Positions 1-64,000 of a stretch of DNA of 64,000 nucleotides are shown one piece after another. A program made the translations under genes and the position numbers. The DNA is from Bilabrum cf. latius (taxonomy: Eukaryota), in contig OZ237738.1 of the NCBI GenBank assembly GCA_965178125.1, forward strand, positions 434,001-498,000, written 5' to 3'. How positions within the stretch are numbered: the first letter of the stretch is position 1; each line of letters starts with the position of its first letter. Under the pieces are notes generated by a model, which worked only from the letters and a program-made list of their open reading frames with translations, was not told the origin of the DNA and did not search any database.

Positions 1-2
1 GG

Positions 3-587
3 CACGACTTGCTCGACAAGAAGCGGACGGGGGCCAGCCACGTGATTCGGACTGCTTCCTAGGAGGGCAGGCAGTACTTCGTCATCACGCCCAAGCTGCT
101 GCCCGACCTGGCGTACGACGACCACTGCCGGGTGCACGTCATCCTGAACGGGACCCACGTCTCTCAGCCTCACCAGCTGAGCAGCTCACTGTACGACCTG
201 TCCGCTAGCACGCTGTCTGCCCTGCCGGCGGGTCATGCGAAGGGGGCTGGGGCGGGTGTGGGGATGGGGATGGGCTCTGCGCGCGGGGGTGGTGCGGGTC
301 GCAAGCGGCGGCGAGGCGACGAGGAGGAGGAGGACGAGGGCACGCCGGAGCCGGAAGACTGGACAGCGGATGAGTTGGAGGAAGGCGATGAAGATGAGGA
401 CGAGTTCGAGCCTAGCAGCAAGGCCAGCTCTTCCTCCTCCTCCTCCGCTTCTTCCAAGGCAGCGTCCCAGAGCAAGTCACGCAGGACTGGTGCTGCGACA
501 TCCAAGCAGGCGGGCAGGCTGAAGAAACGAGCCAGGAAGGAAGCCTCGGCAGGCAGCGATTTTTCGTCCTCGGATATTGATCTTTGA
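3..587 (+). CDS. SMC5: SMC5 structural maintenance of chromosomes protein 5, C-terminal end (gene starts before the window)
   Basis: Frame from nt 3 reads ...RTAS(TAG 60-62)EGRQYFVITPKLLPDLAYDDHCRVHVILNG, matching the SMC5 C-terminal QYF.ITPKLL.DL.Y motif. An acidic/basic low-complexity tail follows, ending in TGA 585-587. Confidence 0.8.
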
Positions 588-793
588 TGTTACAGCTTTG
601 ATGTCATGTGCATTTTGCTTGTTCCTGTCAATTCATCGTTATTTCCTATCATTCTCTGGGTCGGACCCATACCTACCGACACGGTACGATGGTGGCTTGA
701 AGCCAGCTCTGCAGAAATGGCATGAGTAGGACAAAATAGATGTGCGAGTGCGTTGCGAGTTGTTGCGCATCTCCCAAGAGGCGCCGGGCTTGC

Positions 794-1224
794 TCACTCC
801 TTCATTCTGCACACACAAAGATGATGTCGCAGTTTCAAGTAGCCATGCTCGCATCCAGGACAAGGCATGAAATGATTTGCATCCTTTATTTGCTTCTGCA
901 ACGCCATCTATCTGGTTCGCTTCCTCGCGTGGGATACCTGCGATGTTGTTGGAAATCAGCCGACAGCAGCGGGTCCTCTTGTCAGCATGTCTCACGGCCC
1001 AAGTGAGCCCAGTCAAGTGCACAACTTACCTTTTGCTTGGGCACCGCTTTCAGTACTCCTTCCTTCCACTGCTCCAGAACATCTAGCAGCGGGACATGGT
1101 CGAGCTGTTGGCCGACACCAGCTGCCGCTAACTAGAGCCCAGGGTCATGACGAGGGACAAGTCCTACATGCTGCAATAATTCTCGCGAAGCCAACGCTAA
1201 ACGACGAAATCCAGCCCTTGCCAT
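794..1224 (-). CDS. MRPL32: Mitochondrial ribosomal protein bL32m, 112 aa, 2 exons (1224-1030, 937-794)
   Basis: Absent from the ORF track. Spliced, TAG=Q translation: MARAGFRRLALASRELL...KAVPKQK|VSHARKRTRQMALQKQIKDANHFMPCPGCEHGYLKLRHHLCVCRMKE. It shows the bL32 AVPK..S..RKR.R motif, the CxxC...HHLCxC zinc site and an Arg-rich presequence. In-frame TAG at 1132-1134 and 908-910; TGA stop. Confidence 0.88.
938..1029 (-). other. Spliceosomal intron (92 nt, phase 0) in MRPL32
   Basis: GTAAGT...ATCGCAG; removing it joins AVPKQK to VSHARKR in frame. Confidence 0.85.
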
Positions 1225-1369
1225 CGTTTGTACAGGCTCTCTTTGTTTGCCGATGGCTTCTGCGCTCCGAACCTATTGTGGAACGTTCGTCGTTTTGCCG
1301 TTTCGTCAAACCGAAGACTTGACAATATTATTCGAGGTAGACACAATTTTCGATGAATTATTGAGAGTT

Positions 1370-14958: not shown

Positions 14959-17900
14959 TCATTTCGTGGATATCCGTGAGACGAAGCTCCGCATCCGTGA
15001 TAATGCGTCATGAAGCCGGGATTTCGGAGCCGACAAGCAGAAGCGGACCCTTCCCGGGCACCCAAAGCCAGTTCCAGGCACCAATGCCAGTCCCGTCTCA
15101 TCCAAGAGCGCCTAGCAGAAGTCCACGTCCGTGGCGAGCGGTGTTCCGCCCGACGAATACTACCGTGCACCGATGCAACCTTCGATCGATGGCATGGCAT
15201 AGATGGCAGCGGTAGGAATAGCTTCTTCTTCGATGGACACACCACCACCAATGCCGCGAATCCCCTCGAGGAAAATCTGGCGCTTTCCATCGAGCTCTTC
15301 GTTGACTCTGTCCAAGTACTAGTCAGTCTCGGGCTGGAGGGCAGCAATGGCGGCCTCCTAGCCAATGCTAGAAGCGCACGAAGTGACGTCAGACTAGATC
15401 TTGCTGCACATCCGAACCACGTCTGCCGGACCCACCATAAAGCCGACGCGGAACCCGCACATAGCCCAGGCCTTGCTCACTCCGTTCAAGAGGACAACTC
15501 GGCCGCGGAGAGCGGGCAAAGAGAATAGTGAGCTCGCCGGCTCTGCGTGCTTGGAGACGAGCCTGTCGTATATCTCGTCAGCAATCACCACGATGTGCTC
15601 AAGCTCTGGTTCGCAAAGGCACCGAGCAAGCTCCTCGAGGTCTGCCTTGTCGTACTTGGTGCCAGTGGGGTTGCCTGGGTTGCAAAGGATGATGGCTCGA
15701 GTCCGCGACGATGCAGAGGCCCGCAGGCTTGCAGGCGTGATCCGGAAACCGTTCGAGGCTTCGGTAGCCACCTTGACGACGCGAAGGCCCGTGAGCCTCG
15801 GCATGGTCAAGAAGCTGGGCCACGCCGGAGTGGGCACGAGGATCTCGTCTGCGGTGTGGTCACGGTCTGAACCCACGGCAGACCCAGCGCCCGGTGCCAA
15901 GGCGCAGCACAGCTGGAAGAGGCACTGCTTGCTTCCGTTTGACACCAACACGTTCGACTTTGGATCCACTGGCACTCCATGTCGACGGTTTACGTACTTT
16001 GCTACGGCTTGCCGCAGCGTGATGGCGCCATGGGAACTGGTGTACCCGGTCTTGCCGTCCTTGAGCGCCTAGTGCGCGGCCTGCATGACAGATGCCGGCG
16101 GCTTCCAGTCAGGAGCACCCACCGCTAAACTCAGCACGTCTTTGCCAGCCTCCATCATCTCCACCGTCTTTGCGTGCAGCATCGTGGTCACGGGTGCCTC
16201 CACAGCACCAATGGTCGGGTTGAGGCTGTCGTAGCGCAGCTGGGGCGCGCACGGTATTTCATCCAGCGAGGCTGCCGGGGCAGCATGCGGCGCAGACGCA
16301 TCGCGTGACGAGTCTCCAGCCCCGGAGGAAGGACCGCTAGCGCCCCGTGAGGCAGCCACGTCGCTCCCAGCTGCTGTCCCATCGTCCTCTGCCGTGAGCT
16401 CTGATCTGATCTCATCGAGTGCATCCGCAAGCGCATCCAGCTGCCTCCGGCTGCTCTTGTTGTGCTTGTACAGGGCCAAGAATAGGTCGAAGGAATCCTT
16501 GCAAGTGTTCTCGACCAGCTGCAGCAGGGCCTCGAATCCCTTGGTGGCGATCTCACACTGCGACAGCCGTAACCTGTGCAGGACCCTGCCCGTCAAGTGG
16601 GTCACAAACTGCGTGCCCGCGGCGAGCTCGTCATGCTTCTCCGCATTCATGGCTACCATGGAGCAGCCTTGATCGCGGAAGAGGCCCAGCGCGAACTCCA
16701 ACCGGGCCTGCGCTGCCGGCTCCTGCCGGGTTCTTCCTACCTCGTACACCATGGGCAACCCAGCCCAGCCGTGCTTTCCGCTCTCTGGGCCGAACATTGG
16801 GTGCGTCAGGAGGATGTCCGCAGACGCCGGAACATTGGCAGTGTCCAAAAGCAGATCTTTTGGGTGCTGCTTCACGCTGAGCACGTCTACGATCAGCTTG
16901 CCCTCCAGCTGTTCCTTCGGCAGCCTCCGTAGCACCGACGCAAAGCTGAGTATGCTCGTGGCAAGAAACACAATGTCCGGGGAATGAGAGAAGAACTCGC
17001 GCAACCCAAGAGCAAAGGTGGCTCCCATCGCCTCGGCTTGCGCGGTGTAGTCGCCCCTGCTGGTTGCAACAACCTGCAACGGCTTGCCGGCCTGCTTTGC
17101 ATGCTTCAAGAACCCTTGCGCGAGGAATTGACCGAACACGCCGAAGCCGATGATGCCCACCTTGTACGGCCTGCCCGCTGATGCCGCTCCCCCACGGCTC
17201 TGCAGCGCCGCTCCGTTTGATACCATAGAACCCTTAGATTTGTCAACTGATTCATCGGTACCTGCAGCTGCACCACAACTCCCTGCACCGTCAGCCGGAC
17301 CATCAGCTGCATCACTGCTTGCATCAGCTGACGCCGAACGAGCCGCAGCCTGAACCGACTCGACCGCTCCAGCTGCTACCACGTCAGCACCCTTGGACTC
17401 GGACGCTGCATACGACCCCAGCACCCTGACAAAACTGGCAATCTCGCCCAGATGGTCCACAGCTTTGACCATGCGAGGGTCGTGCCGGTGCGCGGCGACG
17501 TCAAGGAAGAACATGTACTCGATGAGGGAGCCCTCGGCGTCGGTCGCCGTCGAGCCTACAGGTGAGGGTGCAGACGACGGCTTGCTCGAGCTGCTGCCGG
17601 TGCCTTGCCCCGGGGAGCCTGGCGGTCCGGCCTGCCCCGAGGGTTGAGCGAACCGCTTCAGTGCGGTCGGATCGTAGTGCACGCCGGGCGTGGCGGGGCG
17701 CGATTCGAGCTTCGTTAGGTCGATGTCACGGAGAGAAAAAACACTGAGGGCTTTGAATAGAGCCCCTGGGACGTTGCTTCTCGGTGCAAACACCATGGAG
17801 GTCCTCCACCGCACGCCCTCTGGCGCTTCCGGCACGATTGCGGCGATTGGGATCTTTGTTGGGACCGATGGGGCCCTCGATACGAGCAGGAAGCGGGTCG

Positions 17901-18450
17901 TGTTCCCCTTCGCGTCTTCGATTCCGGATGCAAGCACTTCTAACCCATAGCGAGTGGCAGCTCCAGCGCTCGCGACGGCTGCTACGTTGAGAGTATCTCC
18001 TGATGTGGCTCTCTCTGCGACATCTGCGGCAGCTCCTGCCGTGTCGTAGAACTCCCTGGCATCGATCGCGCGAGAACGTAGCCAATTCTAGCACTATGCA
18101 AGGGCTTGTGGATGAGATTGCGCGACCTTGATGTCCTTGAGCGTCGTTCCTGAGGGGGCCAGAAGGCAGTGCTTGACATGAAATCTGTGCTCCGCGACTA
18201 TCTCGACGTCGTCGTACCGCACCAGAAGATCGTAGTTAGCATGAATGGAACCGCCTAGATTATTTTCAATCGGAAGCAAAGCAGCATCGACCCGGCGCTC
18301 TCGAATGGCCTAGAAGCAGCTGCTGAAGGAGCTCAAGGGCACCGGGTGCAGCGCGATCCCAGAGACGCGAGATACGCTCGAACCGAGCTCTTGAACGGCT
18401 CCCTCTGAGTATGCCCCTGGAATGCCTTGGTAAGCGACTCTAATTGCCAT
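14959..18450 (-). CDS. Trifunctional arogenate/prephenate dehydratase (PDT+ACT) - arogenate dehydrogenase (TyrA) - class Ib aspartate/prephenate aminotransferase, 1,163 aa
   Basis: Dehydratase: MAIRVAYQGIPGAYSE, LPIENNLGGS, SHPQALAQC, NTTRFL, plus ACT DLTKLESRP. Dehydrogenase: KVGIIGFGVFGQFLA, DVLSVK, THPMFGPESGK, ENTCKDSFDL. Aminotransferase: VSNGSKQ, CNPGNPTG, ADEIY, NGVSKAWAMCGFRVG. One frame, 9 in-frame TAG, TGA stop at 14959-14961. Confidence 0.92.
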
Positions 18451-18566
18451 GGCTGCCGCCCAGTGTTGTCTTTTCGAGCATTGCAGAACAGTCGCAAACG
18501 GGTCGTCCGGAGTCTGGAGCAGCCGTCGTAAAATCGCTTCATTACGCGCACACTAGCAGCCAGAAA

Positions 18567-19721
18567 ATGATTTCGCCTATGCTTGCTAGCGTTGTACTCT
18601 TCAGCACTGTAACATTGTCCCAGGAGGTACCGTGCACGTGCAAGGATCAGGACCTGTGCAAACCTCTCAATGCGCCAGTCTTGCAAGACAAGGAGTTTTA
18701 TGGCTTTTTGCTGAGCCCTGACACGTGGCCGACGTACAATTTCTCGGTATTGACGACAGCATGCATTGCTGGGATTCACAATTTCAATTCTGACATGGTT
18801 TGCGAAGCCCACAAGAATGGAGCCCGCGTGACAGCAATCACTACTGGGTTTCCCAAGGAGCAGCTTGCAAACGCGAGCTTCCGATAGGATTGGGTTCAGG
18901 AAAACATCGACATGATGCAGCAGTATCGGCTGGATGGACTGAATCTCGACTTTGAGGACTGGGTGAAGGATCCCGGCCTGGTTGCCGGCTTGTCCTCGCT
19001 TGTCAAAGAGCTCAATGCTGCGATCAAGACGGTTTCCAAGACGTTGCAGTTCACCGTGGATGTGGCTTGGAGCCCAAATGGAATCGACGAGCGCGACTAC
19101 GACTACAAGACGATCGCGGACAACTCAGACGGGATCTTTGTTATGGCTTACGACGAGAGGAGCCAGGTGATGGCCAAGGACTGCCTGGCAGGCGCGAATT
19201 CTCCGCTTGCCAACGCAGAGGCTGGCCTGGCCAACTTCTCGGCCCTACCAGTTCCCACCTCCAAGATGATCCTGGGCATGCCGTGGTACGGATACCGTTA
19301 CGAGTGCCTGCCGGGCACCGCAGAAGACGCGGTGTCGTGCCCCATCGCGCGCACCAGCTGGCGCAACGCGACGTGTTCGGACGCAGTGGGAAGCGAACAC
19401 AACCACTACGAGATCCTCGGGTGGCTCAACGGTGGAGCCTACGTCACGAAGCCGCTGGTGTACAACGAGACGGTCTAGGCGCCGTACTTCAACTTCCTGA
19501 CTGGGACCCCTTCCAACTCCACGGTGCACCAGGTCTGGTTCGATGATCCCAGGAGCCTCGCCGCCAAGAGAGACCTGGCTGCTAAGCTGGGGCTGGCGGG
19601 AACTGGCGTGTGGAACCTCGACGCGATCACGAGCAGCCAGGGGGACCCCGCCCAAGCCATGCGGGACTCCATGTACGCCGCCACGTCCATCTGCTCGCCC
19701 GCGTCGGGCGGCTGCAAGTGA
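18567..19721 (+). CDS. CTBS: GH18 di-N-acetylchitobiase-like glycosidase, secreted or lysosomal, 384 aa
   Basis: Signal-like MISPMLASVVLFSTVTLS; CxC...LC N-terminus; catalytic DGLNLDFE; DVAWSP..ID.R.YDY; FVMAYDE; GMPWYGY.Y.C; QVWFDDP.SL; GVWN. In-frame TAG at 18885 and 19476; TGA stop. Confidence 0.85.
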
Positions 19722-19860
19722 CTTGCTTGGGCGTAGAGCTCCGACTTTGCGTGTGGTGAATGCGTTGCTTGTGTTTGGGACGGTGGTGCGCGTACGACTG
19801 CTAAGACTACCATTTACTATCTCCATTTTTAGTGCAATCGTATCATATCATACTTATTAC

Positions 19861-22213
19861 TCAAGCCCTTGCCTGCTCCTGCTGGGCCTCTTCGGCGGGG
19901 GGAACCACACCCATGACGGAGTCCACGTCATCGGAAGCGTAGTCGCCGATCAGCTTCAGGTCGTAGTTGTCCACCAGCGCACCCAGCAGCCCAGGCGTGA
20001 TAAAGGCGGGGGGGCGGGGGCCGATCCGGATGCCCTTGAGTCCCAGATGCAGCAGGGAAAGCAGCACGGCCACGGCCTTCTGCTCGAACCACGAGAGCAC
20101 GATGCTCAGAGGCAGGTCCGTCACGGGCACTCCCAGCTTCTTGGAAAGCTCGGCGGCGACTGCGATGGCAGAGTACGTGTCGTTGCACTGTCCCACGTCG
20201 AGCAGCCTGGGGATCTGGGTGTTAGGAACCACACCGTAGTCCTTCTTGTTGATCACGCGGAACTTGCCGCATCCCAGAGTCATCATGAGGCTCTCGTCGG
20301 GCAGCTCGCTCGCCAGGTCGGTGTAGTAGCTGCGCGCGTTCTCAGTGCCGTCGCAGCCCCCGATGATGACGATCCGCTTCAAGTCCCCGGCCTTGGCGGC
20401 ATCAATCACGGCATCGGTGGCGCCAATGAGCGCCTCCCGGCCGAAGCCAGCCAGAGTCGTCTGCGGCTCCTCGGTGGTCTGGAAGCCAGGCTGGTTGAGC
20501 GCAGCCTTGATGGCCGGGGTGAAATCGCCGTCAGCGATGTGGGCGGTGCCGTGGTACCCCACCTCGTTCGTCGTGAAGATGCGCTCCTCGTACGCCGGCT
20601 TGGGCCTCATCAGGCAGTTCGTGGTCATCACGATGCTGCCGGGGAAGTTGCGGAAATCAAAGTGCTGCAGGGACCACTGGCCGCCGTAGTGGCCGACCAG
20701 GTGCTTGTACTTCTTCAGTCCGGGGTAGGTGTGCGCGGGCCTGCGAAACATGGCAGAAAGAGGTGAGGGTGGGAGCCAACGAACGTGTCCAGCAGCATGG
20801 GAAATCTAGGCTGGTTTTGTTCAAAGAAACCCAAATGAGAGGGATTTCTCAGAGCTTGTCGCGTGTCTCTCACATCATCTCTCCGTGCGTGTAGACGTTC
20901 ACGCCGGTGCCCTCGGTCTGCTTGAGGATTGCCTCGAGATCGCGCATGTCGTGGCCGGAAACGAGGAGACACTTGCCCTCGGTGGCAGCCATGTTGATCT
21001 GGGTGGGCTCCGGGGCTCCAAACTGCTCGTTGTGCCCTGCATCCAGCAGCTTCATCGCCGTCAGGTTGGCCTCACCGACGGCCAGGGACAGCTGCACGCC
21101 GTCCATCATGGTCTTGCCCTTGCCGCCGTAGGCCAGCTCTGAGAGCACCCGGTGCACCTCGGAGAACAGATCGGCGCTCTCCTCATGCAGCTCCAGCGCG
21201 TGCGTCCCGTAGGCGCCCACGCCCCTGAGACCGTAGAGGGCCAGCTCATACGCAGCGAAAGCGTCCGCGTCCTCCACGGCGGCCTGTCGCGCGTCCACAC
21301 CAAAGGTACCGAATCCGATCGCGGACAGTGCTTCTGCGTCCGCGTGGGGCGCCACCTGGATGGAGGCGGGGCCGGGGACGCCCTCGGCCGGTGGCTGGAA
21401 CCCCGAGTCCATGGCGAGCTGACGCACGGACTCGGAGACCTCGCTCATCTCTGCTGCCAGCTGCACGAAGCGATCTTCGTCAAAGTTCACGTTGGTAACT
21501 GTGGAGAACAGCGCCCGGAACGTCATTTCATTGACGGAGTGCGGGACTTCGGCTCCCTGGGCGCGAGCAACAGTGGCCCAGTACCCAACACCCATGGCCT
21601 GTGCGGTAACCAGGTCTTGCAGCCCAGACACAAGAGCACTCTTGCCGCACACGCCCTTGACGTGGCATCCAGCATTGGCAAGGGTCTGTTCGCATTGGAA
21701 GCAACTCATCTTGTTGTCAGACACTGCGAAGTGGAGTGGAAAAATGGACCGCGGTCAAGTTGAGTCCATTTCCAGCGAACATGCGCAACAAAGACTAGTT
21801 CAAGCCACGACAAGCGCACACAAAGACTAAATTAATTGTTTTATACCAGTTTATGGGATTTGTACGGATCAAAAGGGTTCTTGTGGGGCAATCCACACCC
21901 ATCGACAAGCCAATCAGGAGCGAATCACGGCACCTCCCTCCCGATTCACACGAGCTGTCACGTCACCAAAGCCATCCAACACGCACAATCAGTAAGATCA
22001 TGCGTATTATACATATTTGAATAGCATTGTTCAGTTGAAACGTGGAAATGAACAAGCATTGAAGCTGTAATGGGGAAAGCTCTCACCAGCGGTGGATCGC
22101 AAGAAGCGCCTCGCTCCTGCGCGAAGCACAGATGTTTTGGTCCCTCCCACGCGTGATGTCAAAGTTGACATTCGCATAATAGCCTTTGAAGCTCTAGTGG
22201 TGGCAGACAACAT
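19861..22213 (-). CDS. hcp: Hybrid cluster protein (prismane; hydroxylamine/NO reductase) with N-terminal mitochondrial-type presequence, 618 aa, 3 exons (22213-22087, 21723-20874, 20740-19861)
   Basis: CFQCEQTLANAGCHVKGVCGK (C-x2-C-x8-C-x5-C), SGHD, YTHGEMMPAH (spliced), TTNC, GGCDG, GCGK, GQCND, SWFEQKA. Exon 1 encodes MLSATTRASKAIMRMSTLTSRVGGTKTSVLRAGARRFLRSTA. TGA stop; no in-frame TAG. Confidence 0.93.
20741..20873 (-). other. Spliceosomal intron (133 nt, phase 2) in hcp
   Basis: GTGAGAG...TTTCGCAG; removing it restores YTHGEMMPAHTYP. Confidence 0.9.
21724..22086 (-). other. Spliceosomal intron (363 nt, phase 1) in hcp
   Basis: GTGAGAG...CTTCGCAG; joins the presequence exon in frame to (V)SDNKMSCFQC. 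Confidence 0.75.
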
Positions 22214-22401
22214 AGTTACGGCCAGTTACAATCAGTTGAGAATGTGATGTCTGAGTGACCTGCCCGACGCGCCGACAAGTTCCGATTCTGGAAACTTCAC
22301 ACCACAAAATCTGAGAATTACTCCGAACTGCTCCGATCCTACCAAGAACAAGTCTTAATCTCATAGAAATAAAGGATTCCGTGTTCTTGTCTGAATACAG
22401 C

Positions 22402-25400
22402 TCACCACCCATCATCTGATTTATCTTCGAAATCTCCCCCATCGTCACTGTCCTGCGGCCCCGCCACACCGCCGAAGGATTCAGCAGTCGAATTGAGACC
22501 ACCAGCATCAGGGAATCCTGCAGCCGCCAGCGAGTCGTCGTCATAGAGAGCATCGGCTCCCTCGGGTACACCACCGTCCGCCCCATCCGCCGCCGTGCCC
22601 TCCCCCGCTCCCCCAGACCAAGAGCCCGAACCCGCGCCCTGCTCACGCGGGTCGGCCGCCTGCCCACGTGCATCCGACTGATCCTGCGATTCATCGCCTG
22701 GACCACCGGCGCGACCCGGGGTTTGATATGCCTCGGATGTTTCAAAGCTCGTGCCACCAGCTCCACTGGCAGCTGCGGCGGCCGCGGCAACGTCCTCCTC
22801 CTTAGCAGTGAACGACATCGGCCCGGCGGTTGGGGGGGCTCCTCTCACAGCCATCCCGCCGTACCCAGCATCCTCCTCTTCACCGTCTTCCTCATCCTCG
22901 TCCTGCTGGTCCAGCCCAGCCTCCTTGGCGATCTCCCCGCCTTCCTCCTGAAGCAGCCGCTGGGCCGCCATAGCCTCCTTCTGGGACTCTGTAGTTGTCT
23001 GGTCCGCATACCTTGACATGGGCTTCCGTCGGCGACCCTTGCTCTTGGCCCGGCCGTTGCTTCCGCCAGCAGGCGGCATGGACAGACCCAGTGCCACGGT
23101 CGGAGGAGGCTTGCTGGCGTCAAGTTTGGAAGCAGCCTCGGCCTCTTTCGCCGCCTACTCATCCTCCTGCTGGTCCGACCCGGTCACAAACGCAGACAAT
23201 GATCCGAAGAGGCCACGTTGCTTTCGCTTGGCCTCCCGCTCCTCCGCAGCCGCACGCTTACGCTCCTGCTATCGCTTCAGGGCGGCCTCTCTGGCTCGGT
23301 TCGTGGCCAGCGCGCGCTTGCCCTTGGCCCCTTTGCCACGCTTTCGGGCTAGTGTGGTCGGATTGACAAAGCTGAAAGCGGCAGGAGCTGGAGGGCCAGC
23401 CTCGTCACCGTCTTTGCTCGATTCGGCATTGCTGCCGTCTTCGGTTGAAGCCGATTCCGGATTTTGATCGGGAAGACTTGGGGTCTTATCATCTGGGCGC
23501 TCCTCATGCACGCCTTCGCCGCTGTCTGCGCTGTCCTTCTCAGCTGGCTCAGGGGTAGTCGTGCTGTGGTGGTCCTCATGCTCGCCCAGGGCCGAGTGCA
23601 CGGCGGGCGAAGCGCCACTTGCCGGCGCGGCTGCAGGAGCTTCCATCTGTTCCACAGCACTTTCACCTCCTGGGGTCTGCTCAGCAGTAGGAGCAGCGAG
23701 CTCTGACACAGCTGCGGGAGGGCCGTCGTTAGGAGCTGTCGTACCTTCTCCTGCAATAGCTGGCGGCTCCATCACCGGCTGATCGCTCGCTCTGGCATTA
23801 GCTGTGACGATAGAGCCGCCCGCGGAGCTGCCGCCCGCTGCCTGCTCAGCCGCCTGATCTGCCGCGACTGGTCGGCCATCACCCGGTGGACTGTCGACCG
23901 GGGTGCTGAGCTGGTCGACGGTGACCTGAGCCTCGGCCGCCCCACTGCCGTCTGTTTCAGACGGAGGCTGCGCTGGCGCTTCAATCAGGTTCCCAGCCTC
24001 GTCCATGACGCCGCACTACCGCCCCATGGCCACGTAGTAATCAAGATCATGTGCCACAGCGTCTGGTTGGAAAACGTATTTTCCACCATCGACAATCCGA
24101 AGCCCCGGGTACCACAAGGTGAGCGTCGAATTGCCATCGTCACCTTCGTACCAGTAGCCTTCTGGTGCTCTTGTGTACCTGTCGGGATCTTGCTAGTACA
24201 GCTTGCAGTACAGAGGTGCAATGATGTCTACAAGCCGTTCATGCTCAGGAAGTACGCCTGCGACGCATGAGATTGTGGCGGAAGCCGCCGAAATTGCACC
24301 CGACTGTGCGTTGGCATCGGTTGCTTGGCCTTGCTGGGCACTCGCATAGCCGACTTCAACCGATGCACCGGGTTCTGCCCCATCGTTCTCTCCACTATCT
24401 TCGGTGCCAGCATCGTCTGGCTGACCTTTGCCAGACAGTGGGGGCTCTTGGTCCTGTTTGGCAGCTGCAAACGCGCTCTCATCACTGGCTTCACTACCTT
24501 TCTGCTCCGCAGCCGCAGCCCGCGGGGACTGCTGATCGCTGGGAGTGTTGCCAGAAGCTGTTGAACCAGTAGCCCCGTCTCCTGAGTTCTTGATATCGTC
24601 AGTTGGGTCTCCTTCCGCCTAACTAGACACGTCTACCTGATGCTCTACAACGGAGTCATCGTCGGTCTCGGGTGCCTCCTCGCCTTGCCCACTGCCCGTA
24701 CCAGTCTCGTTCAATGCAGCAGCCACCGCCTCGGCAGATTCTTCTTTAGGCTATACTGAGGCACCAGCACCAGCACCAGCACCAGCACCGGGACCAGCAC
24801 CAGCACCAGCACCAGCACCAGCACCAGCACCAGCATCATCGCCTTGCTTGTCGTCCGCCTATCCACTGCTCGGGTCCAGCATGCCCATCATGAGGGCACT
24901 CCCAGTCACAACCTTAGGAGTGGCATCCACGGAAGCCTGCCTCACCCTCAACGGGGACGGTGCATCTTCGTCCCCGCCAATCTGGAGCTTGCGGGGTGAT
25001 GCCTTCGACTCGCTGTCCGCGCCCGTGCTGGCTCCAGAGCTCGTCCCGCTGGTATCAGCGGCAGCCCCCGAAGCTGCCGTGGTGCCCGACTCGTCCTGCT
25101 GGCCTGCCTCGGTCGAGTTATTCACGGCGTCGCTTTCATCACCACTGCTACCGCTCGTGTCGCCGTCGTCGCCGCCCGAATCCTCGTCGTCGCTTGAGGA
25201 AGACAGCACATTCTCGTCATCGTCCAAAACCCCCTTGTCCTCCTCGTCCGACTCATCACCTGTGACGGGGGCCTCCTTTGCTGGATCAGGCTTAGATGCA
25301 GCTAGCTTGGCGGGACTCTCTCCCTGCCCTTGCTCTTGTGTGTGGACTAGACCAGCTGCGGCTCCGACTGAGCTTGAGACGTCTGAGTCCTCGGCTGGAG

Positions 25401-31400: not shown

Positions 31401-31679
31401 ACTATTCAAGTTCTTCAACGCGACGCTACAGGCGTTCGTTGGAGTGGCTTATCTCTGCGAGACAAAGCGAGGCATGCATAGATCCACAAGGGCCACATTT
31501 CAAATCGTGTAAACACCATCGGTGTAGGAGGTCTACGGCTGACAAGCGTGTCTACAAGGTCAACATCTGGACGCACCTGCAGATTTCAATCTGGCTTCAG
31601 ACAGTGCTTTCTGCAAAAACTCCTCGTTCGTCGGTTGGTCTCCGTCATCATCATCGCCAAAGAGTCCCAAGAAACTCAT
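22402..31679 (-). CDS. Large Ala/Glu/Gln-rich coiled-coil protein with acidic low-complexity C-terminal third (~3,051 aa), 2 exons (31679-31577, 31454-22402)
   Basis: The major - strand ORF fragments (22402, 23269, 24859, 27073, 27682, 28477, 30556, 30973) share one frame linked only by TAG, including a tandem TAG TAG at 27421-27426. No in-frame TAA/TGA on a triplet scan. Heptad-rich composition; TGA stop. Confidence 0.8.
24761..24835. repeat. (GCACCA)n coding microsatellite encoding a Gly-Ala repeat in the coiled-coil gene
   Basis: Direct hexamer repeat with one imperfect unit; reads AGAGAG... on the - strand. Confidence 0.9.
31455..31576 (-). other. Spliceosomal intron (122 nt, phase 1) in the coiled-coil gene
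   Basis: GTGCGT...TCTCGCAG; contains TGA codons; removing it joins MSFLGLFGDDDD...KSA to EISHSNER in frame. Confidence 0.7.
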
Positions 31680-31869
31680 TTTCAACCCAAAGACTGGGCC
31701 AGATCTAAGTCCAATAGATCACTTAATTGTATGTGCTAACCCTTGTGCGCTTGCCTGCAAGGAGAGCTGTATTTGGCCCTCGCCCTGCTTCGGTGGTCCG
31801 AGAAATCAGAATCGCACGCAACCCCACAACGGTTCGATCCGGTCGTCTTCGGCCAATTGTGAGCTCCAA

Positions 31870-37320: not shown

Positions 37321-37441
37321 TTCTTAGACTCAAGCAAGACCGAAAAAAGTGAAAGGGAACATGCTCGCAGCCCCGAAGGTTCGTTATGGAGGTTCGCTGG
37401 AACCAAACAGCAACTGTTGAACTGAAGCATTCTTGCCTATC

Positions 37442-39391
37442 ATGAGCGAGAATCTGACAACATCTCCTGAGGTTGCGTTAGCACAGACAACAGAATCATC
37501 CTCTGGCGCCCCGCTATTGGAGGTAGAGGGCAGACAGCCAACGGACGAGGAGATTCTCGATGCGTACGAAGTAGAGCGTGTTGTCCGATTTGCTCGCGAT
37601 TGTGGGTGCAAGCGTTTGGCATTGTAGTTCCCAGACTGGATGTTAGTGCACTGTCCAGCAGTTGCAAGGCTTGTGTCTGACCGACTGCCAGAAGAAAGCA
37701 TAGCTTTTGTCCTCGGAGACACTTCATACGGAGCAGATTGCGTTGATGAGGTAGCAGCAAAGCACCTGGGAGCAGATGGCGTCGCTCACTTTGGACCAGC
37801 ATTCTCACACGCGACTTCATCGCTCCCAACACTGTTTGTGTTTGGCAGAGGCGACATCGATCCAGTTGCTACGGCCGATGCAATTGCGAGCCGAGTAGGC
37901 AAGCTCGACGTAAGCTTGCGACCTGGCAGCTCTGACGGAAAGAAAGACAAGCAAATGCTTGTGCTTCTTGCAGACTCATAGTACAATTCGGTTCTTGCTG
38001 CAACGTGTGCTTCGTTGCGAAACCATCCCGATATTGTTGGCGATAGCCGCGTCAGCTGGGACGTCTTGTCTGGCGAACAGGAAGCAGAATAGCTTGTTGA
38101 GCCATCTTCGAAAGCACCTGAAGCTGAAACAACCACAGGAGAAAGTTACAGTGCGTCAGGGTCGTCTGAAGCTGCTAGCAGGAGTGACGAGGGCGGGGAT
38201 GCTGCTGCTGCGACGGGACATGCCGGCAAGGTGCTGCAGCTCAATCTCGCTGGAGCCTCTGTCTCCTTACCGCCGTGGTGCACCGACTTGAGTTAGGTGC
38301 ACCTTGCGTACATTGGAGATCCAGGCCCGGGCGGCTGGGCGGCAGCGGGTCCAGGAAGCGGGTCCACGCGGCTGACCCAGGCCATGATGAGGCTTGGCTG
38401 CGGGGATGCGATCGTCTACTCGCCCAGGAAGAAGAAAGTGGCACCGGGCCCGGACATCCACCGCCAATTATCCCGCCGCTTCATGGCAGTCGAGCAGGCC
38501 AAAGTTGCAAAAACGGTGGGGATTGTTGTGGGCACCCTTGCAGCACGCCGCTTTCGCGATGTTCTGTGGGGCCTCAAACGGCTGGTGCGCGCCGCCGGCC
38601 GTGGGTGCTACACGTTCGTGATCGGAAAACTCAAGCCAGAGAAGCTTGCTAATTTCGGAGAGATTGATGTTTTCGTGCTGGTGGGGGCTGGTGACAGTGC
38701 TCTCGTGGATACCCGAGAGTTTCCGAAGCCTGTCGTGCTGCCGTACGAGGCAGTGCTTGCGTTCAACCCAGAGGTGGAATGGGATGGCAAAATCGTCCTC
38801 GACTTCGATGAGCTGGTCAAGTTCTTGCCACCGAAGCCGGAGCCTCTATCTGCGACAGATACTACTGCCACAGCTACCGGAGGTCTTGCTGCGAGCGCAG
38901 CAGCAGAGCCAGTGGTGTCCGACAGCACAGCGCCAGGTTCTGCAGGTGATAGCGCAAAGGGCCTGGGTGCTGGGTCAAGTACAGCCGGGATCGAGGACGA
39001 GGATGAGGAAGAGGATGACGACAAGCCGTTCTTCTCGCTGGTCACAGGCAAGTACGAATCGCGGGGATCTGCCAAGTCTGGCGGCCCGACCGTATGGGGT
39101 GGCAGCACGGCACTCACCGTGTCGGGAGCCGGTTAGGTTGCATTGCCGTCAGAGTACACGGGTGCCGGCCGCCTGGCGCAGCTGAACTGGCAGGGGATGG
39201 ACTATGAAGTTACCGAGGAAGCAGACACCAAGGTTCACAAGGGATGGCACGGGGTTGCAAGCGGTTTTGAGGGCGAAGGCGACGGGGAGCGCGGCGTGGA
39301 AGGCAGCGATCATGACAAGTCACGGACCGCCGGGGCAGCTGCAGAGCCAGGTGCCGCCAGCGGGGCTAGTGGCGGATAGGCAGGAACATGA
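37442..39391 (+). CDS. DPH2: Diphthamide biosynthesis protein DPH2, 649 aa
   Basis: YEVERVV, LAL(TAG 37625)FPD, LGDTSYGADCVDEVAAKH, GIVVGTL, GKLKPEKLANF.EIDVFVLV, FPKPVVLPYE and the Dph2-type C-terminal WQG...G..GVASGF. Six in-frame TAG; TGA 39389-39391. Confidence 0.85.
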
Positions 39392-49019: not shown

Positions 49020-49241
49020 ATCCCAATTTCAATAGTAGGCTCGGTTGTCAGCCTGAAGAGATAGACTAGCCGAAGGGCTAGCGAGGTTCCGTTCGCCACG
49101 TCACAGGGTGGTCGCAAAATTGGAGAGCCGCGCAATCTGTGGAACCGATAGTTGGTCGCAGGTTTCGAGGCTCAACTAGAGAACTAGGCCACACGGCATT
49201 AGCCTAAACAAATAAGAGAGAAGCTATCATGCTCAATTCAC

Positions 49242-52200: not shown

Positions 52201-53389
52201 CCGCTGACATCGTCCATGGAGTGCACAGGGGCCGGTTTCCAAGCGACCTCGTCGTTGCTGGCAATGGCCGCCACTGGGCGCAGCTGGCTTCCGGCACCAG
52301 CGCCAGCCTTTGCTTTGACCTGGGACCCAGCGGTTGTTGCAGGGGCATCGCTTTTGAAAGAAGACCCCTTGTCGATTTCCGATCCAAGCCTCGTTGTCTG
52401 CTGGTCTGTGACGGCGCTGCCCGCCCCGTCGCCTGCCGCACCCTCTGTCATGGGCTTGTTGGTCTTCGCCTTCTCAGGGGAGACTGCCTGTGCTTGCGGG
52501 GCGGCTTCAGGTGCGGCCAACTAATTGGGAACAGGGGGTGTTTCATTCTATTCGGCATTCTCGCCTTCCGCGCTGCTGCCAGGGTTGGCAGGGATGGATT
52601 GCCCAGTCGGGCCGGAGGCAGGTGCCCCATCAGCAGGGCCCGCGCCACCACCCGCACCGCTGCTTGGCCCGGTTTCTGCAGAACTTGGATTGGTTTCCTA
52701 TGCGGGGTCTCTGCGGCTGCCGTCTTTGCCGGTTTGAATCTCGCCGACTCCAGCGAGAAGCCGAACCAAGCGCTCCAAGGCCGCTGCCTCAACTCCAAAG
52801 CTTGCACTTTGCAGTGCCCTGTGCGCCGAGACGAACGTGCGCTTCAGCGAAGCGTTTGGATACGGTCGTTCACGCGATTCCTGTGGATCTGATGCCAGCG
52901 CAACGATTCGAGAGCCAGCAACGCTTGCAGCTTCGACAAGCAGCTTCGTGAGGCGTTCTAGAGACTGCGATCATTTCAGAGGTGCAAGAAGGCTACCATG
53001 CAGAATCTGACCCCAATTTAACACACCAGTAGGGACATTTACTATGTCATGCTTACGTTGACCTTTGCCGATTCAGATCGGAGCTTCGCCTCGATGACAG
53101 CCGTTTCAGCTTTCGCTGCAGCGGCCTTGTGCTCAGCATGGTGCAGATCTGAGGCAGACGCCAGTTCAGAAGCCTTAGCAGATAATGCAATCAGCATGGG
53201 AGTGATAGGAAGCGAAGAAGATGTAGCTTGAGCGGAGACTGCGCCTCCAGCCGCGGATCCATCGGCGTCCGATGACAAATCAGACAGAAGTCTATCCAAA
53301 ACCGAACTAGATCTTGAGTGGCGCCGAGTCCCAGTACTATGACTATCAAGTTCTTGCGCAAATCCTTCTCTGGAACCTTTGGACGACAT
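49242..53389 (-). CDS. Ala/Gly/Ser-rich protein of unknown function (~1,351 aa), 2 exons (53389-53057, 52964-49242)
   Basis: ORF fragments 49242 and 50481 share a frame joined by TAG, and the frame extends to 52964. A GT-AG intron links it to an exon starting MSSKGSREGF. No family recognised. Confidence 0.65.
52965..53056 (-). other. Spliceosomal intron (92 nt, phase 0)
   Basis: GTAAGC...ATCGCAG, AT-rich, reconciles the two frames (SAKVN|SLERLTK). Confidence 0.72.
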
Positions 53390-53543
53390 GGTGAATGCTG
53401 CACGAGTGTTTCTAATTGTGCAGTTGTCGAATGTAACGAGCCAATCTCGTTTAAAAACCGCACGAAACGGACGTGAGTCAGCGCTCAGCTCCTGGATGCA
53501 GCCTTGCAGCACCGAGATCGGCACAAATCAAAAAGAACATTGC

Positions 53544-54926
53544 ATGGGCTGCGGGAGCAGTCGCGTTGGGCTTCGAGACGCGTTCAGCGGAGTAGAGCAG
53601 GAGGAATTGCTTCTGAAGTATGGAGAGCTGCAGCATTCCCTACATTTGGAGGACAAAGAGATGCTTGACATGTACAAAATATTTGCTATGTTTGATGACA
53701 ATCGGACAGGCGTGCTCTGCTAGTCGGACTGGCTTGCGCTCTTCGACTTGGAGCGGTCTCCGCTGACCGAGAGACTTTTTCGCATGTTTGCTGGTGGTGC
53801 CGAGGATGGCGTCAGCTTCAAGTACTACCTGTTTAGCACTTGGACGTTTTGCACCCAAAACACTGCATCGTTGACTTCGTTTGCGTTTCAGATGTATGAT
53901 AGCCGCAACAGGGGTATTCTTGGGGCGGCCGACGTCATGGCAATGATGAAGGATCTGTTCGGCGTGCAGTATGAGGACAACCCCATCGCCCAGCAGATCA
54001 TGCGGAAGTTGCTAGATAAGAATGTTAAAGGCGAGCGAACCACAGGAGGGGTGACCCAGGCGATGTTTGCTCAGCTTGCTAGCTCTGCCAAGAATCTTCT
54101 GTACCGGCCGTTCCAGGTGTAGCACCACATGCAGGACCAGGTGCTAGGCAGGGCGTTCTGGGCAAAGAAAGCCAGGTAGAGGTATGACATGCAGGCAGAC
54201 GGCAGGTTTGACCTGAGCGCAGTCGTTGAAATCATGAATCGCGGCAAGGCAAAGTCCCGGCACCTGACCGTTCTGCAAGGCGTGGTCGTTCCACTCCGGA
54301 CGGCTGCCGGGACGCAGGAATCCGAAGCAGAGGCGCAGCAAGCAGCTCGCCAGAAAAATTTCATGCTACAAATGGATGAGGACAGCAGAGAAATGGTGAA
54401 GAAGGCCTCCTCGGCGAAGATGAGGCAGAGTCCGGCGAGGCGCTCGCCCCACCGATCGGCCAGCAGCCAGGCTCCGTACGACAGCTAGCACGAAGGAACT
54501 CTCCAGACCGGGAGCAACCTTAGACCAGCAAAAGTGCCGGCACATCCGAGCAGTGCAGGGTGGAGCGCGGTCGTGGGCGGCAGCTCGGACTCGACGATGC
54601 GCTCGTCCCTGGGTGGCGGCGGCCAGGCGCTCCCCAGCGGGGTGGCCATGCCGAGGTCCATGTCGATGCAAGTCGGACGCCATGCCAGGACCGCCGCTGG
54701 TCACGCCGACCTCGAGTAGAAGATATCTGCAGGTCTCCCGCGCTCTGCATCGAGCTCCTTCACGGAACGTCTTCTCGCGTCGCCAGGAAGGGGAGCAGGG
54801 GCAGGGGCAGGAGCAGGCAGGCACGTCTCTGCAGCCGCCCGAGAGAGGATGGACCGTAACCCGGCCACTAAAGTGAATCACAGAGCTTCCGCCATGCGGA
54901 GAGCCCAGCAAGGATTCCGAGGATGA
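53544..54926 (+). CDS. Calcineurin-B/CHP-like EF-hand calcium-binding protein with MGCGSS N-acylation motif and disordered tail, 460 aa
   Basis: MGCGSSR (myristoylation/palmitoylation-type N-terminus); EF loops FDDNRTGVLC and FAFQMYDSRNRGIL; LLYRPFQV(TAG 54120)HHMQDQVLGRAFW resembles the P.F.LQ....LG..FW tail of this group. Five in-frame TAG; TGA 54924-54926. Confidence 0.75.
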
Positions 54927-59585: not shown

Positions 59586-60365
59586 GCGATTCGCGCGTTG
59601 TGCTTGTCGCTTGGACCGCAAAACTTTCTAGGTACTTTGAACATTAAATATAAATCACTCATCTAGCGTCCCGCCTCTTTCGCGTGGGCCGCTTCTTACC
59701 ATGCCAACCAAACTGTTCGTTCACATTCCCGTGCCATCTCGCGGGCTTTCTGACCCGTGCTAGTCAGTGAGACTGTCTGTATGCAGCGCAGTCTTCACCA
59801 GGACTTGCTGAAAATGGAGCCTACTCTCAACGAAGATCCCTCCATCTCGGTCTCTGGGGAAGAGCTTTCTACGGTCCATGTGAACTCGGTCGGCTCAACG
59901 ACGTCGATGCTCTCAACCTCATTCGAATCTCCGGAAGTCAGAACCATCATTCCAGCACCGAACGTCTGGTTGTTAGTATAGTGTCCCATTGGTACTACGA
60001 TGCAAAGTCCATAGATCAGGGAAATTAAAGCCACTTTCGCGAGTTAAGCGGCAGTTGCACTTCGCGCGCCACAGGTGTTAAGTTTCTTATTTATTTATTG
60101 TATCAGCCATGGTGGAAGAACTCACGGTACGAGCTGCCATGCAGCAGGGTTGCACTCCCTCTCAATGAAACGAAAGAAATCATAGCAATTACAGCACACA
60201 CCAGTCGCATCATTCTTTGTTTGGCTCAGTTGCTTTGATACAGAATGGTCTGGCGAGTCTCCGATCTCGCGCCAAACCGCGGTGCACAGTGTGACGAGGG
60301 GCTATTCGGAGCGGAAAACAGAGGAACCGGTGGGGACGTGTGGACGCAGTTGCTCTATCCCTTCG

Positions 60366-63300
60366 ATGTCTGGGCAGGCATCTGCAGAGGACCTCAACAG
60401 AGTGGCGTGCTATCCAGGTACTTCACAGAAATACGACGTTCTGCTAGGAGATGGCTTGCTGGGCCGCCTTGCTCAGGTGCGTTGCGTCACAGTAGCTGAA
60501 TCAATCGCCTGTGTTAACCTCTGGGCTACCTCGTGCTATCTGCCCATGCACAGCCTCTCTTTGCGCAGGAAATCAAAAATGTTGTGCCTAGTGCTGGTCC
60601 GATCGTGGTGATTTCGGATGAGAATGTGTGGAAGCACTGGGGCGCCGTGGTGTCCCGATCCTTTGCTGTCGCCGAGATGCCGCCTCCGCTGGTTCGGGTC
60701 GTCCCGTCGGGCGAGCCCACTAAATGCAGGGAAATGAAGCAAGAAATCGAGGACTACATGCTTCAGAACATGTGCCACAGGTCTTCGTGTGTTGTTGGGC
60801 TTGGTGGTGGAGTCGTGGGAGACCTCGCCGGCTTCGTCGCAGCCACGTACATGCGCGGCATAAAGTTCATTCAGGTCCCAACTACTTTGCTGGCAGTGGT
60901 AGACTCCAGCATTGGCGGCAAGACGGGAATCGACACGCCTGGCGGCAAGAACCTGGTGGGCGCCTTCCACCAGCCAAAGCTGGTGATTGCAGACATCCGC
61001 GCCCTCTCCACCCTGCCGGTCCGGGAGCTGCGCAACGGCATGGCAGAAGTCATAAAAGCAGGTGCAATCGCAAACGAGGACCTTTTCATCGCCTGCGAGG
61101 ACTCTGCAGACGCATTCGATGCGGCGGTGGCAGCCCTAGAGGAGGCCCGCTCGTCACACGGCAGCACCAGCACCAGCCAGGATCGCGGCAGCCGTGGCGT
61201 GGATGCAGGTGCCAGCGGTCCTTCTTCCGGGGCCGGTGCCGCGCCGGTTGCTGGCGAAGATCGCTCGGTCCTCGTCCGTGCGGCGACAGACTCGCTTGTG
61301 GAGGTGCTGCTGCCGCTGCTCACTGCCTCCGTGCAGGTCAAGTGCGAGGTGGTGACTGCAGACGAGAGAGAGGGCGGCCTTAGGGCCATCCTGAACTTTG
61401 GTCACACGATCGGGCACGGGATCGAGGCCCAGCTGGCCCCTCGCTGGCTGCATGGGGAGTGCGTGGCCGTGGGCATGGTCAAGGAGGCGGAGGCAGCGAG
61501 GCAGATGGGGTGCTGCGACTCGAGCGTGGTGGGGAGGCTCCAGCGGGTCTGCAAGGCCTACGGACTGCCCGTCAGGGTGCCTGACGAAATCGACTGCGAG
61601 AAGTGCATGCGGTCAATGGGGAAGGACAAGAAGAACTCGGTGCAGGAGGGCAGCAGCGGCTCCGGCCACGGTAAGCCGAGCCGCGGGGAAGAGGTACCCG
61701 AGGAGGTGCTGGAGTTGACCGCGAGTCCACTGAACAAGGTCTCCATCAAGTGCGTCTTGCTCAAGGAGATCGGAAAGGTTGTGACGCCGCCGCACGCCCA
61801 CGCCGTCGAGCACCAGCTCCTCCGTCGGCTCGTGTCGCAGTCGGTGGCAGTCGGGGCGGGGGAGATTTTGCAGACTGCCTATCCTTCGGCCAAGACTAGA
61901 GGCGCAGTGGATGCGGCAAGCGGGGACGGGTCGAGCGGGAGCGCGGCAGCTCCGAAACCGCAAGGCACCGAGCCGGCCCCGATCCGCATCCGCGTGCCCG
62001 GATCCAAGAGCATCTCAAACCGCGTGCTTCTCATGGCCGGCCTCGCGAGTGGGACGACGCGGATCACCGGTCTGCTGCAGTCGGACGACACGCAGGCTAT
62101 GATGGGTGCCCTCACTGCCGTCGGGGCCAAGATGCGGTGGGAGCTAGGGGAGGGCGGAGGCCCCGTGCTAGTGGTGACCGGCACTGCGGGCGCGCTCTCG
62201 GCTCCGTCGAAGCCCCTCCTATTCATCAAGAACGCGGGAACCGCTAGCCGTTTCCTCACCACCGCCTTGTGCCTGCTGCCGGCTCTTGAAGGTGACGGCG
62301 TGGTGCTCGACGGCAACTCGAGGATGCGCAAGCGGCCGGCTGGACCACTGGTTGACGCGCTCCACAGGCAAGGATGCGAGCTGGCCTACGAGCCTATCGA
62401 AGGAGAGAAGGGGCCTCCCAGCGAGCGGCGGGCGCTGCCGCTGCGCTTCCGAGGGGGTGGTCTGCCCGGCGGCAGGATCGAGCTGGCGGCCAAGGTGAGC
62501 TCGCAGTACGTCTCATCCATCTTGCTCTCTGCGCCGTACGCCAAAGAACCCGTCGAGCTCGTGCTTGACGAGGAAAAACCCACTTCGCTGCCTTACATCG
62601 AAATGACCACGGCGATGATGAAGCAGTTTGGCGTCGAGGTGGAGCAGCTGGCTCCAAACCACTACAGGATCCCGAGCGGCTGCTACTCGTTTGCCGGAGG
62701 CGACGGATCCAAAGTGTTTGAGGTGGAGGCAGACGCATCGTCGGCGACCTACCCTGCAGCCTTCGCGGCGGTGACAGGGAGTGCCGTTCTTCTGCAGGGG
62801 ATTGGCAGCCGCAGCGTGCAGGGAGACGCAGAGTTCTCCATGCTGCTCAAGCGCATGGGCTGCAAGGTGCACCGAACCCACTCCACGACCACCGTGATTG
62901 GGCCCCCTCCGCGACCGCTAGTGCTGGACACTGCAGCCGGCGCATCTGCAGATGACGGCTTGATCGGACTGGGCAGCGTCGACATGAGCACCCAGACAGA
63001 CGCCTTCCTGACCATGGCGGCAGTCGCAGCGCACTCAGCTGGCGAGACGCACATCTTCAACATCGAGAACCAGCGAGTCAAGGAGTGCAACAGGATCCAG
63101 GCAATGCACGATGAGCTTGCCAAGTGCGGGGCTAGGACGGAGACTCGCCAGGACGGTATCCTCATCGCGGGAGCCGTCGCGGGCGAGGGGCTGCAAGGCG
63201 CCAGGATCCACTGCTATGACGATCACAGGGTTGCGATGGCCATGGCGGTATTCGGCGCTGGCCTCCTCGCCAGGCGCAGGGCCGCGAGCGGGCTGCTTAG

Positions 63301-64000
63301 TGCTGCACCCGTGTGCCCGATCGTGCTGGACGACCCTCTCTGCGTGGAAAAGACGTATCCCGAGTTCTGGGACCACCTGGAGACCATCCTCGGCGTGGAC
63401 GTCTCGGCAGCCGATGCAGGCGCGCTGTCCCCAGGTAGTGTCGCGGAGGTCCTGCACGCCAGGCTCGCGGGGACGCAGGGTTCTCGAACCGGCGGCTCCA
63501 CCCAGCCTGCTGCCCCGGGCCTGGCGGATCTTGCACCGAGGAATCTGCTGCAAGCGAAGCCGCGACAGCTGATCAACGCCTCCCTCGCACGACCCTTCAT
63601 GTCTGCGGTAGTCATTGGGATGCGGGGCGCGGGAAAATCGACACTCGCCCGAGCTGCAGCCGCTGGCCTGGGGCGCCCGTGGCGGCACATCGACCTGGAC
63701 GAGGTCCTCGTGAACGAGGAAGGCCGCACGGTCCAAGAAATCGTCGCGGAAGTAGGCTGGCCTGGGTTCAGGGCGAAGGAGGTCGACGTGCTTCTGGACT
63801 GCCTCTCCAGCGATGACCTATCCCAGCATTGCGTCATCTCGTGCGGCGGCGGAATCGTCGAGTCGCCCGTTGCGCGAGCTCTCCTCAGGGCGTACGCGCA
63901 GGGCGGTGCCGCGTCAGTGCGAAAGCTGGGGATCGAGTCGGGCTTGGTTCGGAAGAGTGCGGACGGCTCCGCGGCCTCGATCATCGCGAGCATGGATCCG
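60366..64000 (+). CDS. ARO1: AROM multifunctional shikimate-pathway protein, 5' part (DHQ synthase, EPSP synthase, start of shikimate kinase); runs off the window. Exons 60366-60476 and 60569->64000
   Basis: DHQ synthase: GGGVVGDLAGF, PTTLLAVVDSSIGGKT, LNFGHTIGH, LHGECVA. EPSP synthase: PGSKSISNR, NAGTASRF, SSQYVSS, RVKECNR, DDHRVAM, KTYPEFW. Shikimate kinase: IGMRGAGKST. Missing from the ORF track because no stop occurs before the window end. Confidence 0.95.
60477..60568 (+). other. Spliceosomal intron (92 nt, phase 0) in AROM
   Basis: GTGCGT...TTGCGCAG; joins ...LLGRLAQ to EIKNVVP...VVISDENV in frame. Confidence 0.8.

Follow-up and report, generated by a model that had tools for sequence, protein, structure and literature searches.

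A GC-rich, gene-dense nuclear locus in which UAG is very probably a glutamine codon and UAA is kept out of frame

Nuclear genetic codes that split UAG from UAA have been attributed to a handful of lineages, and the lists in two papers (Panek 2017, PMC5304391; McGowan 2024, PMC11687900) include no stramenopile. For Iotanema spirale, Panek et al. 2017 (PMC5304391) describe UAG as a glutamine codon next to an unchanged UAA, predict a tRNA-Gln(CUA) and report a T32G change in eRF1. UAG alone is also glutamine in Protocruzia tuzeti and in two phyllopharyngean lineages, having arisen repeatedly (McGowan et al. 2024, PMC11687900), and it is leucine in one phyllopharyngean lineage. Elsewhere, UAG by itself has become leucine in the rhizarian exLh and serine in Scotinosphaera (PMC5304391, PMC11687900). 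The coupled arrangement, in which UAA and UAG (together UAR) both stand for glutamine, is listed for many ciliates, hexamitins, oxymonads, ulvophytes and the aphelid Amoeboaphelidium protococcarum (PMC5304391, PMC11687900, PMC6299283). Here we describe a stretch of 64,000 nucleotides (nt) of DNA (contig OZ237738.1, positions 434,001 to 498,000; henceforth the window) in which TAG interrupts the reading frame of 13 out of 15 delineated genes and UAG is very probably an ordinary glutamine codon.

Like Iotanema, the window combines UAG as glutamine with a spared UAA. The two differ in their gene ends, UAA being described as the primary terminator of Iotanema whereas TGA closes 13 of 14 genes here, and in the organism itself, since Iotanema is an anaerobic metamonad known from its transcriptome, whereas the source of the window carries AROM and genes for phenylalanine/tyrosine biosynthesis and is placed next to Cafeteria by two trees. 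Phyllopharyngeans and Protocruzia share the code table of the window, but they are ciliates. In contrast to ciliates, the window has a guanine-plus-cytosine (GC) content of 56-63% (about 59%), its GT..AG introns measure 122-363 nt, its AROM sequence branches apart from the alveolates, and its genes of 9-14 kilobases (kb) lie on contigs of 26-30 kb from runs whose longest records exceed 200 kb. The UAR codes have UAG as glutamine in common with the window, but their UAA is glutamine too, whereas no TAA occurs within 19,355 codons here. In exLh and Scotinosphaera UAG alone changed and UAA was kept, as in the window, but the amino acid is leucine or serine rather than glutamine. Formally the same code (TAG as glutamine, NCBI translation table 15) is described for crAss-like and Lak phages; those are phages in bacteria, whereas the present case is a eukaryotic nuclear genome with introns. 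The code table is known; what sets our case apart from earlier ones is the host lineage, the GC content and the use of UGA as main terminator.

The reading frames of the window open up only when TAG is read through. Scanned with TAA and TGA as the sole stops, the window is covered nearly completely by long frames on both strands, the longest of which has 4584 codons and 38 TAG (1151-14905, plus strand), followed by frames of 3180 codons with 37 TAG (39486-49028, minus strand) and 3064 codons with 37 TAG (22402-31596, minus strand); frames of 1242 and 1213 codons and more besides are also obtained. The standard code gives 1161 codons as the longest frame, and the giant frames stay closed if TAA (longest frame 1167 codons) or TGA (1161 codons) is made the sense codon instead. 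Summed over open reading frames (ORFs) of at least 500 codons, the yield is 21,320 codons with TAG as sense, whereas the standard code yields 3,680, and reassigning TAA or TGA instead yields 4,248 or 10,181, respectively. When the window was simulated with a first-order Markov model (n=30), the longest frame free of TAA and TGA reached 519 codons at most and averaged 405 over the simulations.

Codon counts tell the same story. Thirteen ORFs with a total of 19,355 codons contain 157 in-frame TAG and neither TAA nor TGA internally; the only in-frame TAA (1) and TGA (11) are their terminal codons. With 621 CAG and 260 CAA (29.5% of the 881 CAR, that is CAA or CAG, codons), UAG would account for about 15% of glutamine codons, and it is 0.8% of all codons. 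Counting from the first ATG leaves 150 TAG in 17,719 codons, one of them intronic. Comparison of the coding frame of the three giant ORFs with the two other frames gives 0 against 84 TAA and 0 against 460 internal TGA, whereas TAG is equally common (112 in frame, 230 across the two others), from which it follows that TAA and TGA have been purged from the coding frame and TAG has been spared. The original prediction had reported in-frame TAG in 14 of 16 genes; the widespread occurrence stands, but the count becomes 13 of 15, as the hybrid-cluster gene and the AROM fragment have none. Its remaining observations on the frames hold: the lack of internal TAA and TGA, some 38 TAG in a 13.5-kb frame, two further giant minus-strand frames (9.0 and 9.5 kb), and six individual TAG sites at 35869, 37625, 18094, 15394, 15358 and 47424. 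Usage of TAG is uneven among the genes, with 0 in the 618 codons of the hybrid-cluster protein (25 CAR) and 0 in the 1161 codons of the AROM fragment (36 CAR), the other ORFs averaging 0.8-0.9%; expression level or gene history is perhaps behind this.

The letters themselves are well established. Four runs from four studies (X1, X5, X6 and X7) match positions 19401-39400 with no differing letters and no indels. One of the four may be the source of the assembly. Contigs of both X5 and X7 join across 20740-20872 and 31455-31576, and contigs of X5 only across 21724-22086 (GT..AG, minus strand), which corresponds to introns of 133, 122 and 363 nt, respectively. Joining the exons restores a hybrid-cluster protein of 618 codons and a proper start of the giant coiled-coil gene. 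Because of these spliced joints we read X5 and X7 as transcripts, and the window is eukaryotic nuclear DNA with spliceosomal introns. Of the 55 in-frame TAG of four genes, the pieces listed for X5 cover 49 and those for X7 cover 27, all of them unchanged, and a single X5 contig with a splice joint carries 30. Where the original prediction had pointed to CAG in transcripts as the sign of an error or of editing, the spliced contigs keep TAG.

For the identity of the amino acid we aligned the proteins of the window to homologs, with X at the TAG positions. Pfam matches run on past the TAG codons, as in the cyclophilin-HAS1 fusion (DEAD 421-592, then Helicase_C and CTE_SPB4) and in Dph2 (Diphthamide_syn), and the Aminotran_1_2 match (819-1199) of the three-enzyme fusion at 14959-18600 contains five TAG. 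Among 120 homologs of HAS1, every one of the 111 without a gap at the motif Ia site has Q there; the AL*FPD site of Dph2 (the asterisk marking TAG) shows Q in 115 of the 116 ungapped sequences (120 homologs) and in 3 of 3 PDB chains; and residue 194 of the EF-hand protein (54120-54122) corresponds to Q in 143 of the 148 ungapped sequences (150 representatives). Other sites are less telling: the TAG in the cyclophilin part of the HAS1 fusion falls in a variable, mostly gapped column (120 homologs), four other alignable TAG of Dph2 and both TAG of the GH18 gene are in variable columns (the latter, from PDB alignments, uninformative), the TAG of the SMC5 fragment is aligned to K or E in a variable column of the PDB alignment, and another EF-hand column has R 46, K 40 and Q 12. 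The fusion protein at 14959-18600 was compared only locally, with four Escherichia coli enzymes (PheA, YbdL, AlaA and AlaC). In it the SHPQALA*C site lies opposite Q of PheA, SIG*EAA opposite Q in YbdL and AlaC, and DFC*ALL opposite Q in YbdL. Ten TAG columns were occupied in half or more of the rows; a column-likelihood (log-odds) tally summed across them gave glutamine +13.0 bits, the runners-up E and S scoring -14.2, and the same tally assigned all 11 control codons correctly (CAG, CAA, GAG, GAA, CTG, TTG, AAG, TAC, TGG, TCG and CGC). In these alignments the evidence for glutamine is thin in number of sites, yet it is unanimous at every conserved column.

The UAG codons fall within conserved domains that carry on after them, persist in the spliced contigs that we read as transcripts and stand opposite glutamine at conserved columns. 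The explanation that we hold with high confidence is a gene-dense, GC-rich nuclear genome in which UAG is an ordinary glutamine codon, UGA is the usual stop and UAA is kept out of the reading frames and is probably a stop as well; the glutamine assignment of the original prediction is upheld. By the reasoning of Panek et al. 2017, a tRNA-Gln with anticodon CUA would decode UAG and not UAA; such a tRNA would probably derive from tRNA-Gln(CUG), one substitution away, and eRF1 would have lost efficient recognition of UAG while retaining that of UGA and UAA. Several observations tell against this explanation. Searches of the window for tRNA genes (ARAGORN) and Rfam matches returned 0 each and eRF1 is not among its genes, so that the decoding tRNA and the eRF1 change are both inferred. 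The library type of X5 and X7 is not on record, their RNA origin being deduced from the joints. UAA as a probable terminator is seen at a single gene end, that of the MORN gene, with a TGA 16 codons downstream. Strongly conserved TAG columns are 3 of the 10, the other 7 being variable and two of them leaning to other residues. The column at residue 285 of Dph2 is mostly D (61) or N (27), that at residue 61 of the EF-hand protein (53721-53723) is L 69, I 23 and V 14 of 143 non-gap rows, with L in the nearest relative (72% identical), and several other TAG of the aminotransferase part lie opposite H, K, P, R or L in the E. coli enzymes.

How firmly UAG is confined to sense can be judged from the gene ends. 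Among 14 of them, the SMC5 fragment and the hybrid-cluster gene after splicing included, 13 are TGA and 1 is TAA, none needing TAG; UGA is the usual terminator. An ambiguous code, in which UAG is glutamine internally but a context-dependent stop at some gene ends, as in Condylostoma and karyorelict ciliates (and, for UAA, in Blastocrithidia), is the alternative that fares best, and we consider it unlikely. Its opening is the end of Dph2, where position does not establish UAG as sense only: the last TAG is 3 codons before TGA, so that termination there is possible, and contigs cannot reveal where translation ends. However, TAG makes up 0.85% of codons, and at that frequency the probability that at least one of 12 gene ends has a TAG in its last 5 codons is roughly one half. 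In the 11 other TAG-bearing ORFs that were measured (the SMC5 fragment is outside this set), the last TAG is 24-485 codons ahead of the stop and in many cases falls within a conserved domain or precedes one. Nor do the bases beside in-frame TAG show any marked bias.

A coupled code with UAR as glutamine, where UAA is merely rare through GC-richness, is a good deal less probable than that. The one TAA-ended gene has its TGA 16 codons on, and therefore the window does not prove termination at UAA; UAR as glutamine is, moreover, attributed to an aphelid in papers citing Karpov 2013. However, if UAA were used beside 157 TAG at the CAA:CAG ratio of these genes, about 66 in-frame TAA would be expected and none is observed (a chance of ~1e-24 at the CAA ratio of 260/881), for which reason UAA is no working glutamine codon. 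Nor is TAA scarce as a triplet in the giant ORFs, given its 84 off-frame occurrences, and reading it as sense lengthens no gene meaningfully, since the genes gain only short 5' leaders and the 16 codons at the MORN end. That UAG is uncoupled from UAA, as originally proposed, is accordingly supported as regards the exclusion of UAA from frames (0 against 157), whereas the role of UAA as a terminator is likely and is seen at one gene end.

The possibility that UAG is sense for another residue, such as Leu, Glu, Ser or Tyr, appears more remote still. It could draw on the two aberrant columns, namely the D/N one in Dph2 and the EF-hand one, where 106 of the 143 homologs have L, I or V and the nearest relative has L. 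However, the three near-invariant glutamine columns cannot be Leu, Glu or Ser, and Leu and Ser are rejected on their account; all residues other than Q score -14.2 or less in the tally, whose controls assigned L to CTG and TTG, E to GAG and GAA, and S to TCG. Finally, an artefact or dead DNA (assembly error, pseudogenes, or U-to-C editing to CAG), in favour of which we found nothing, has a negligible chance of being right and is excluded for the genes concerned by the TAG retained in spliced, intron-free contigs, besides which the same letters recur over 20 kb in four runs of four studies and the purging of TAA and TGA is complete, unlike in decayed genes.

To place the organism, we built quick maximum-likelihood trees of single genes from top-scoring hits. 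The AROM fragment, in a tree limited to 18 unusually long relatives because the homolog search was restricted to longer proteins, joined Cafeteria and one environmental sequence (57% identity, 905 kept columns) with a Shimodaira-Hasegawa-like approximate likelihood ratio test (SH-aLRT) support of 99. Dph2 gave the same grouping, Cafeteria plus one environmental sequence with SH-aLRT 99, on long branches and with a composition warning for Cafeteria. HAS1 fell on the side of Ectocarpus, Hondaea and Aplanochytrium (88), outside a fungal clade (98) that includes Rozella. The nearest protein relatives are environmental sequences. A search of the AROM fragment against a protein cluster atlas found only generic AROM and bacterial clusters, which gave no placement, and Rfam detected no rRNA genes in the window. 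Most likely, then, the window comes from a distant stramenopile relative of Cafeteria and the bicosoecids, a weak placement that has against it the sparse, score-selected sampling of quick single-gene trees and, because of the composition warning, a possible GC-driven attraction to Cafeteria. With the same reserve, a position on the stramenopile side argues for an origin of the code separate from those of ciliates and fornicates, and the three trees agree with the earlier suggestion that the organism is neither and that the reassignment is possibly independent. As to candidate identities, an aphelid is not favoured because there is no in-frame TAA and HAS1 is outside the fungal clade with Rozella; Halocafeteria seosinensis (46.8% GC) and Incisomonas marina (no shikimate pathway) do not fit.

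The genes of the window, identified by Pfam and PDB sequence searches, are listed in Table 1; five of them are long ORFs without a known family.

Table 1. Genes of the 64,000-nt window (coordinates in window positions; an asterisk in a motif marks TAG).
Gene	Coordinates	Strand	In-frame TAG and gene end	Evidence and remarks
SMC5-like, 3' end, cut by window start	3..587	+	TAG 60-62; TGA 585-587	PDB SMC5 chains, best E 8.5e-05
Giant lineage-specific ORF, 4584 codons	1151..14905	+	38 TAG; TGA	Pfam search: no family
Prephenate dehydratase + prephenate dehydrogenase + class I/II aminotransferase fusion	14959..18600	-	12 TAG stop-to-stop (9 after first ATG, 3 upstream of it)	Pfam PF00800, PF02153/PF03807, PF00155; TAG at 18094 (SHPQALA*C), 15394 and 15358
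GH18 chitinase-like	18444..19721	+	2 TAG; TGA	Pfam PF00704
Hybrid-cluster protein, two GT..AG introns (20740-20872, 21724-22086)	19821..22225	-	No TAG; TGA	Spliced X5 contig; joined exons 618 codons
Giant coiled-coil-like gene	22402..31715	-	36 TAG in spliced frame, downstream of intron	Intron 31455-31576; spliced start MSFLGLFG
MORN-repeat protein	31543..34458	+	10 TAG; TAA (sole TAA-ended gene of the window)	Pfam PF02493
Cyclophilin-HAS1/DDX18 DEAD-box helicase fusion	34600..37323	-	TAG 35869-35871 in motif Ia (PTRELAI*IY); TAG 36805-36807 in cyclophilin part	Pfam
Dph2, diphthamide synthesis	37421..39391	+	6 TAG, incl. 37625-37627 in AL*FPD; last TAG 3 codons before TGA	Pfam PF01866
Giant protein kinase, 3180 codons	39486..49028	-	37 TAG, incl. 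47424 directly before CAG run (A*QQQQ)	Pfam PF00069
ORF without known family, 1242 codons	49242..52970	-	4 TAG stop-to-stop; TGA	
EF-hand protein	53343..54926	+	5 TAG, incl. 54120-54122	Pfam EF-hand, weak
ORF without known family, 664 codons	55455..57449	-	3 TAG; TGA	
ORF without known family, 749 codons	57336..59585	+	1 TAG; TGA	
Pentafunctional AROM, 5' part (DHQ synthase, EPSP synthase, shikimate kinase)	60518..64000	+	No TAG; runs off window	Pfam; 1161 codons

The genes are packed very tightly. Only about 50-140 nt lie between one stop-to-stop frame and the next (14905-14959, 34458-34600, 37323-37421 and 39391-39486), and the divergent HAS1 and Dph2 genes are separated by 97 nt. Within the giant coiled-coil gene, one TAG at 31552 (among the 37 of the frame 22402-31596) is intronic, and contigs of all runs break at a repeat at 24753-24846. 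Ahead of its conserved CxxC start, the hybrid-cluster protein has some 50 additional residues with a high content of Arg, Ser and Thr, a putative organelle targeting peptide. Three enzymes are fused in a single 1163-codon frame at 14959-18600 and would span the steps after prephenate to both Phe and Tyr; a literature search for this fusion of prephenate dehydratase, dehydrogenase and aminotransferase gave no description of it. The cyclophilin-HAS1 fusion is found also in several environmental proteins of 822-987 residues, on contigs of up to 718 kb, and may serve as a lineage marker. A metagenome scan with this protein returned 80 loci that match the cyclophilin domain only, with no DNA of a close relative among them.

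The EF-hand gene has a relative in public data. A predicted protein of 105 residues (P0261), encoded on three metagenome or run contigs (the longest of 3752 nt), shares 72% identity with the N-terminal part of the window protein and ends exactly where the latter goes on with glutamine (…WTFCT, then Q…); such an end is what gene calling with the standard code would give if the relative has an in-frame TAG there. The TAG at residue 61, the one site unlike glutamine, is position 10 of an EF-hand loop (query 53541-54923).

The sequence from 19401 to 39400 occurs letter for letter under four organism codes, and in one of the runs it has a depth of 2 beside much longer contigs. The source may be a shared culture strain or a co-cultured or contaminating eukaryote in the data sets of other organisms. 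As several studies have the identical sequence, some as DNA and some as spliced, transcript-like contigs, a cultured strain may be its origin.

A literature search mostly without subscription journals and supplements, which is not proof of absence, brought up no description of a nuclear UAG code for any stramenopile or matching organism, and those who generated the public data may already be aware of the code. That stramenopiles here show their first nuclear reassignment of a stop codon, with UAG as glutamine and UAA not glutamine having arisen independently in a GC-rich, gene-dense relative of bicosoecids whose genes end almost only at UGA, is a tentative proposal to which we give somewhat less than even confidence. 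For practical purposes, annotation, BUSCO scores and proteomes of the organism need translation table 15, because prediction with the standard code would fragment 13 of the 15 genes.

UAG and UAA nearly always change together, and wherever a lineage has separated them, nature has run an experiment on the way in which eRF1 and tRNAs with a CUA anticodon discriminate between the two codons. A further independent case, GC-rich and mostly UGA-ending, would help to separate the changes that are required from those that are specific to a lineage. Public DNA runs and spliced, transcript-like contigs exist for the organism and, if a cultured strain is indeed behind them, it would allow the uncoupling of UAG from UAA to be studied directly through its tRNA-Gln(CUA), glutaminyl-tRNA synthetase (GlnRS) and eRF1.

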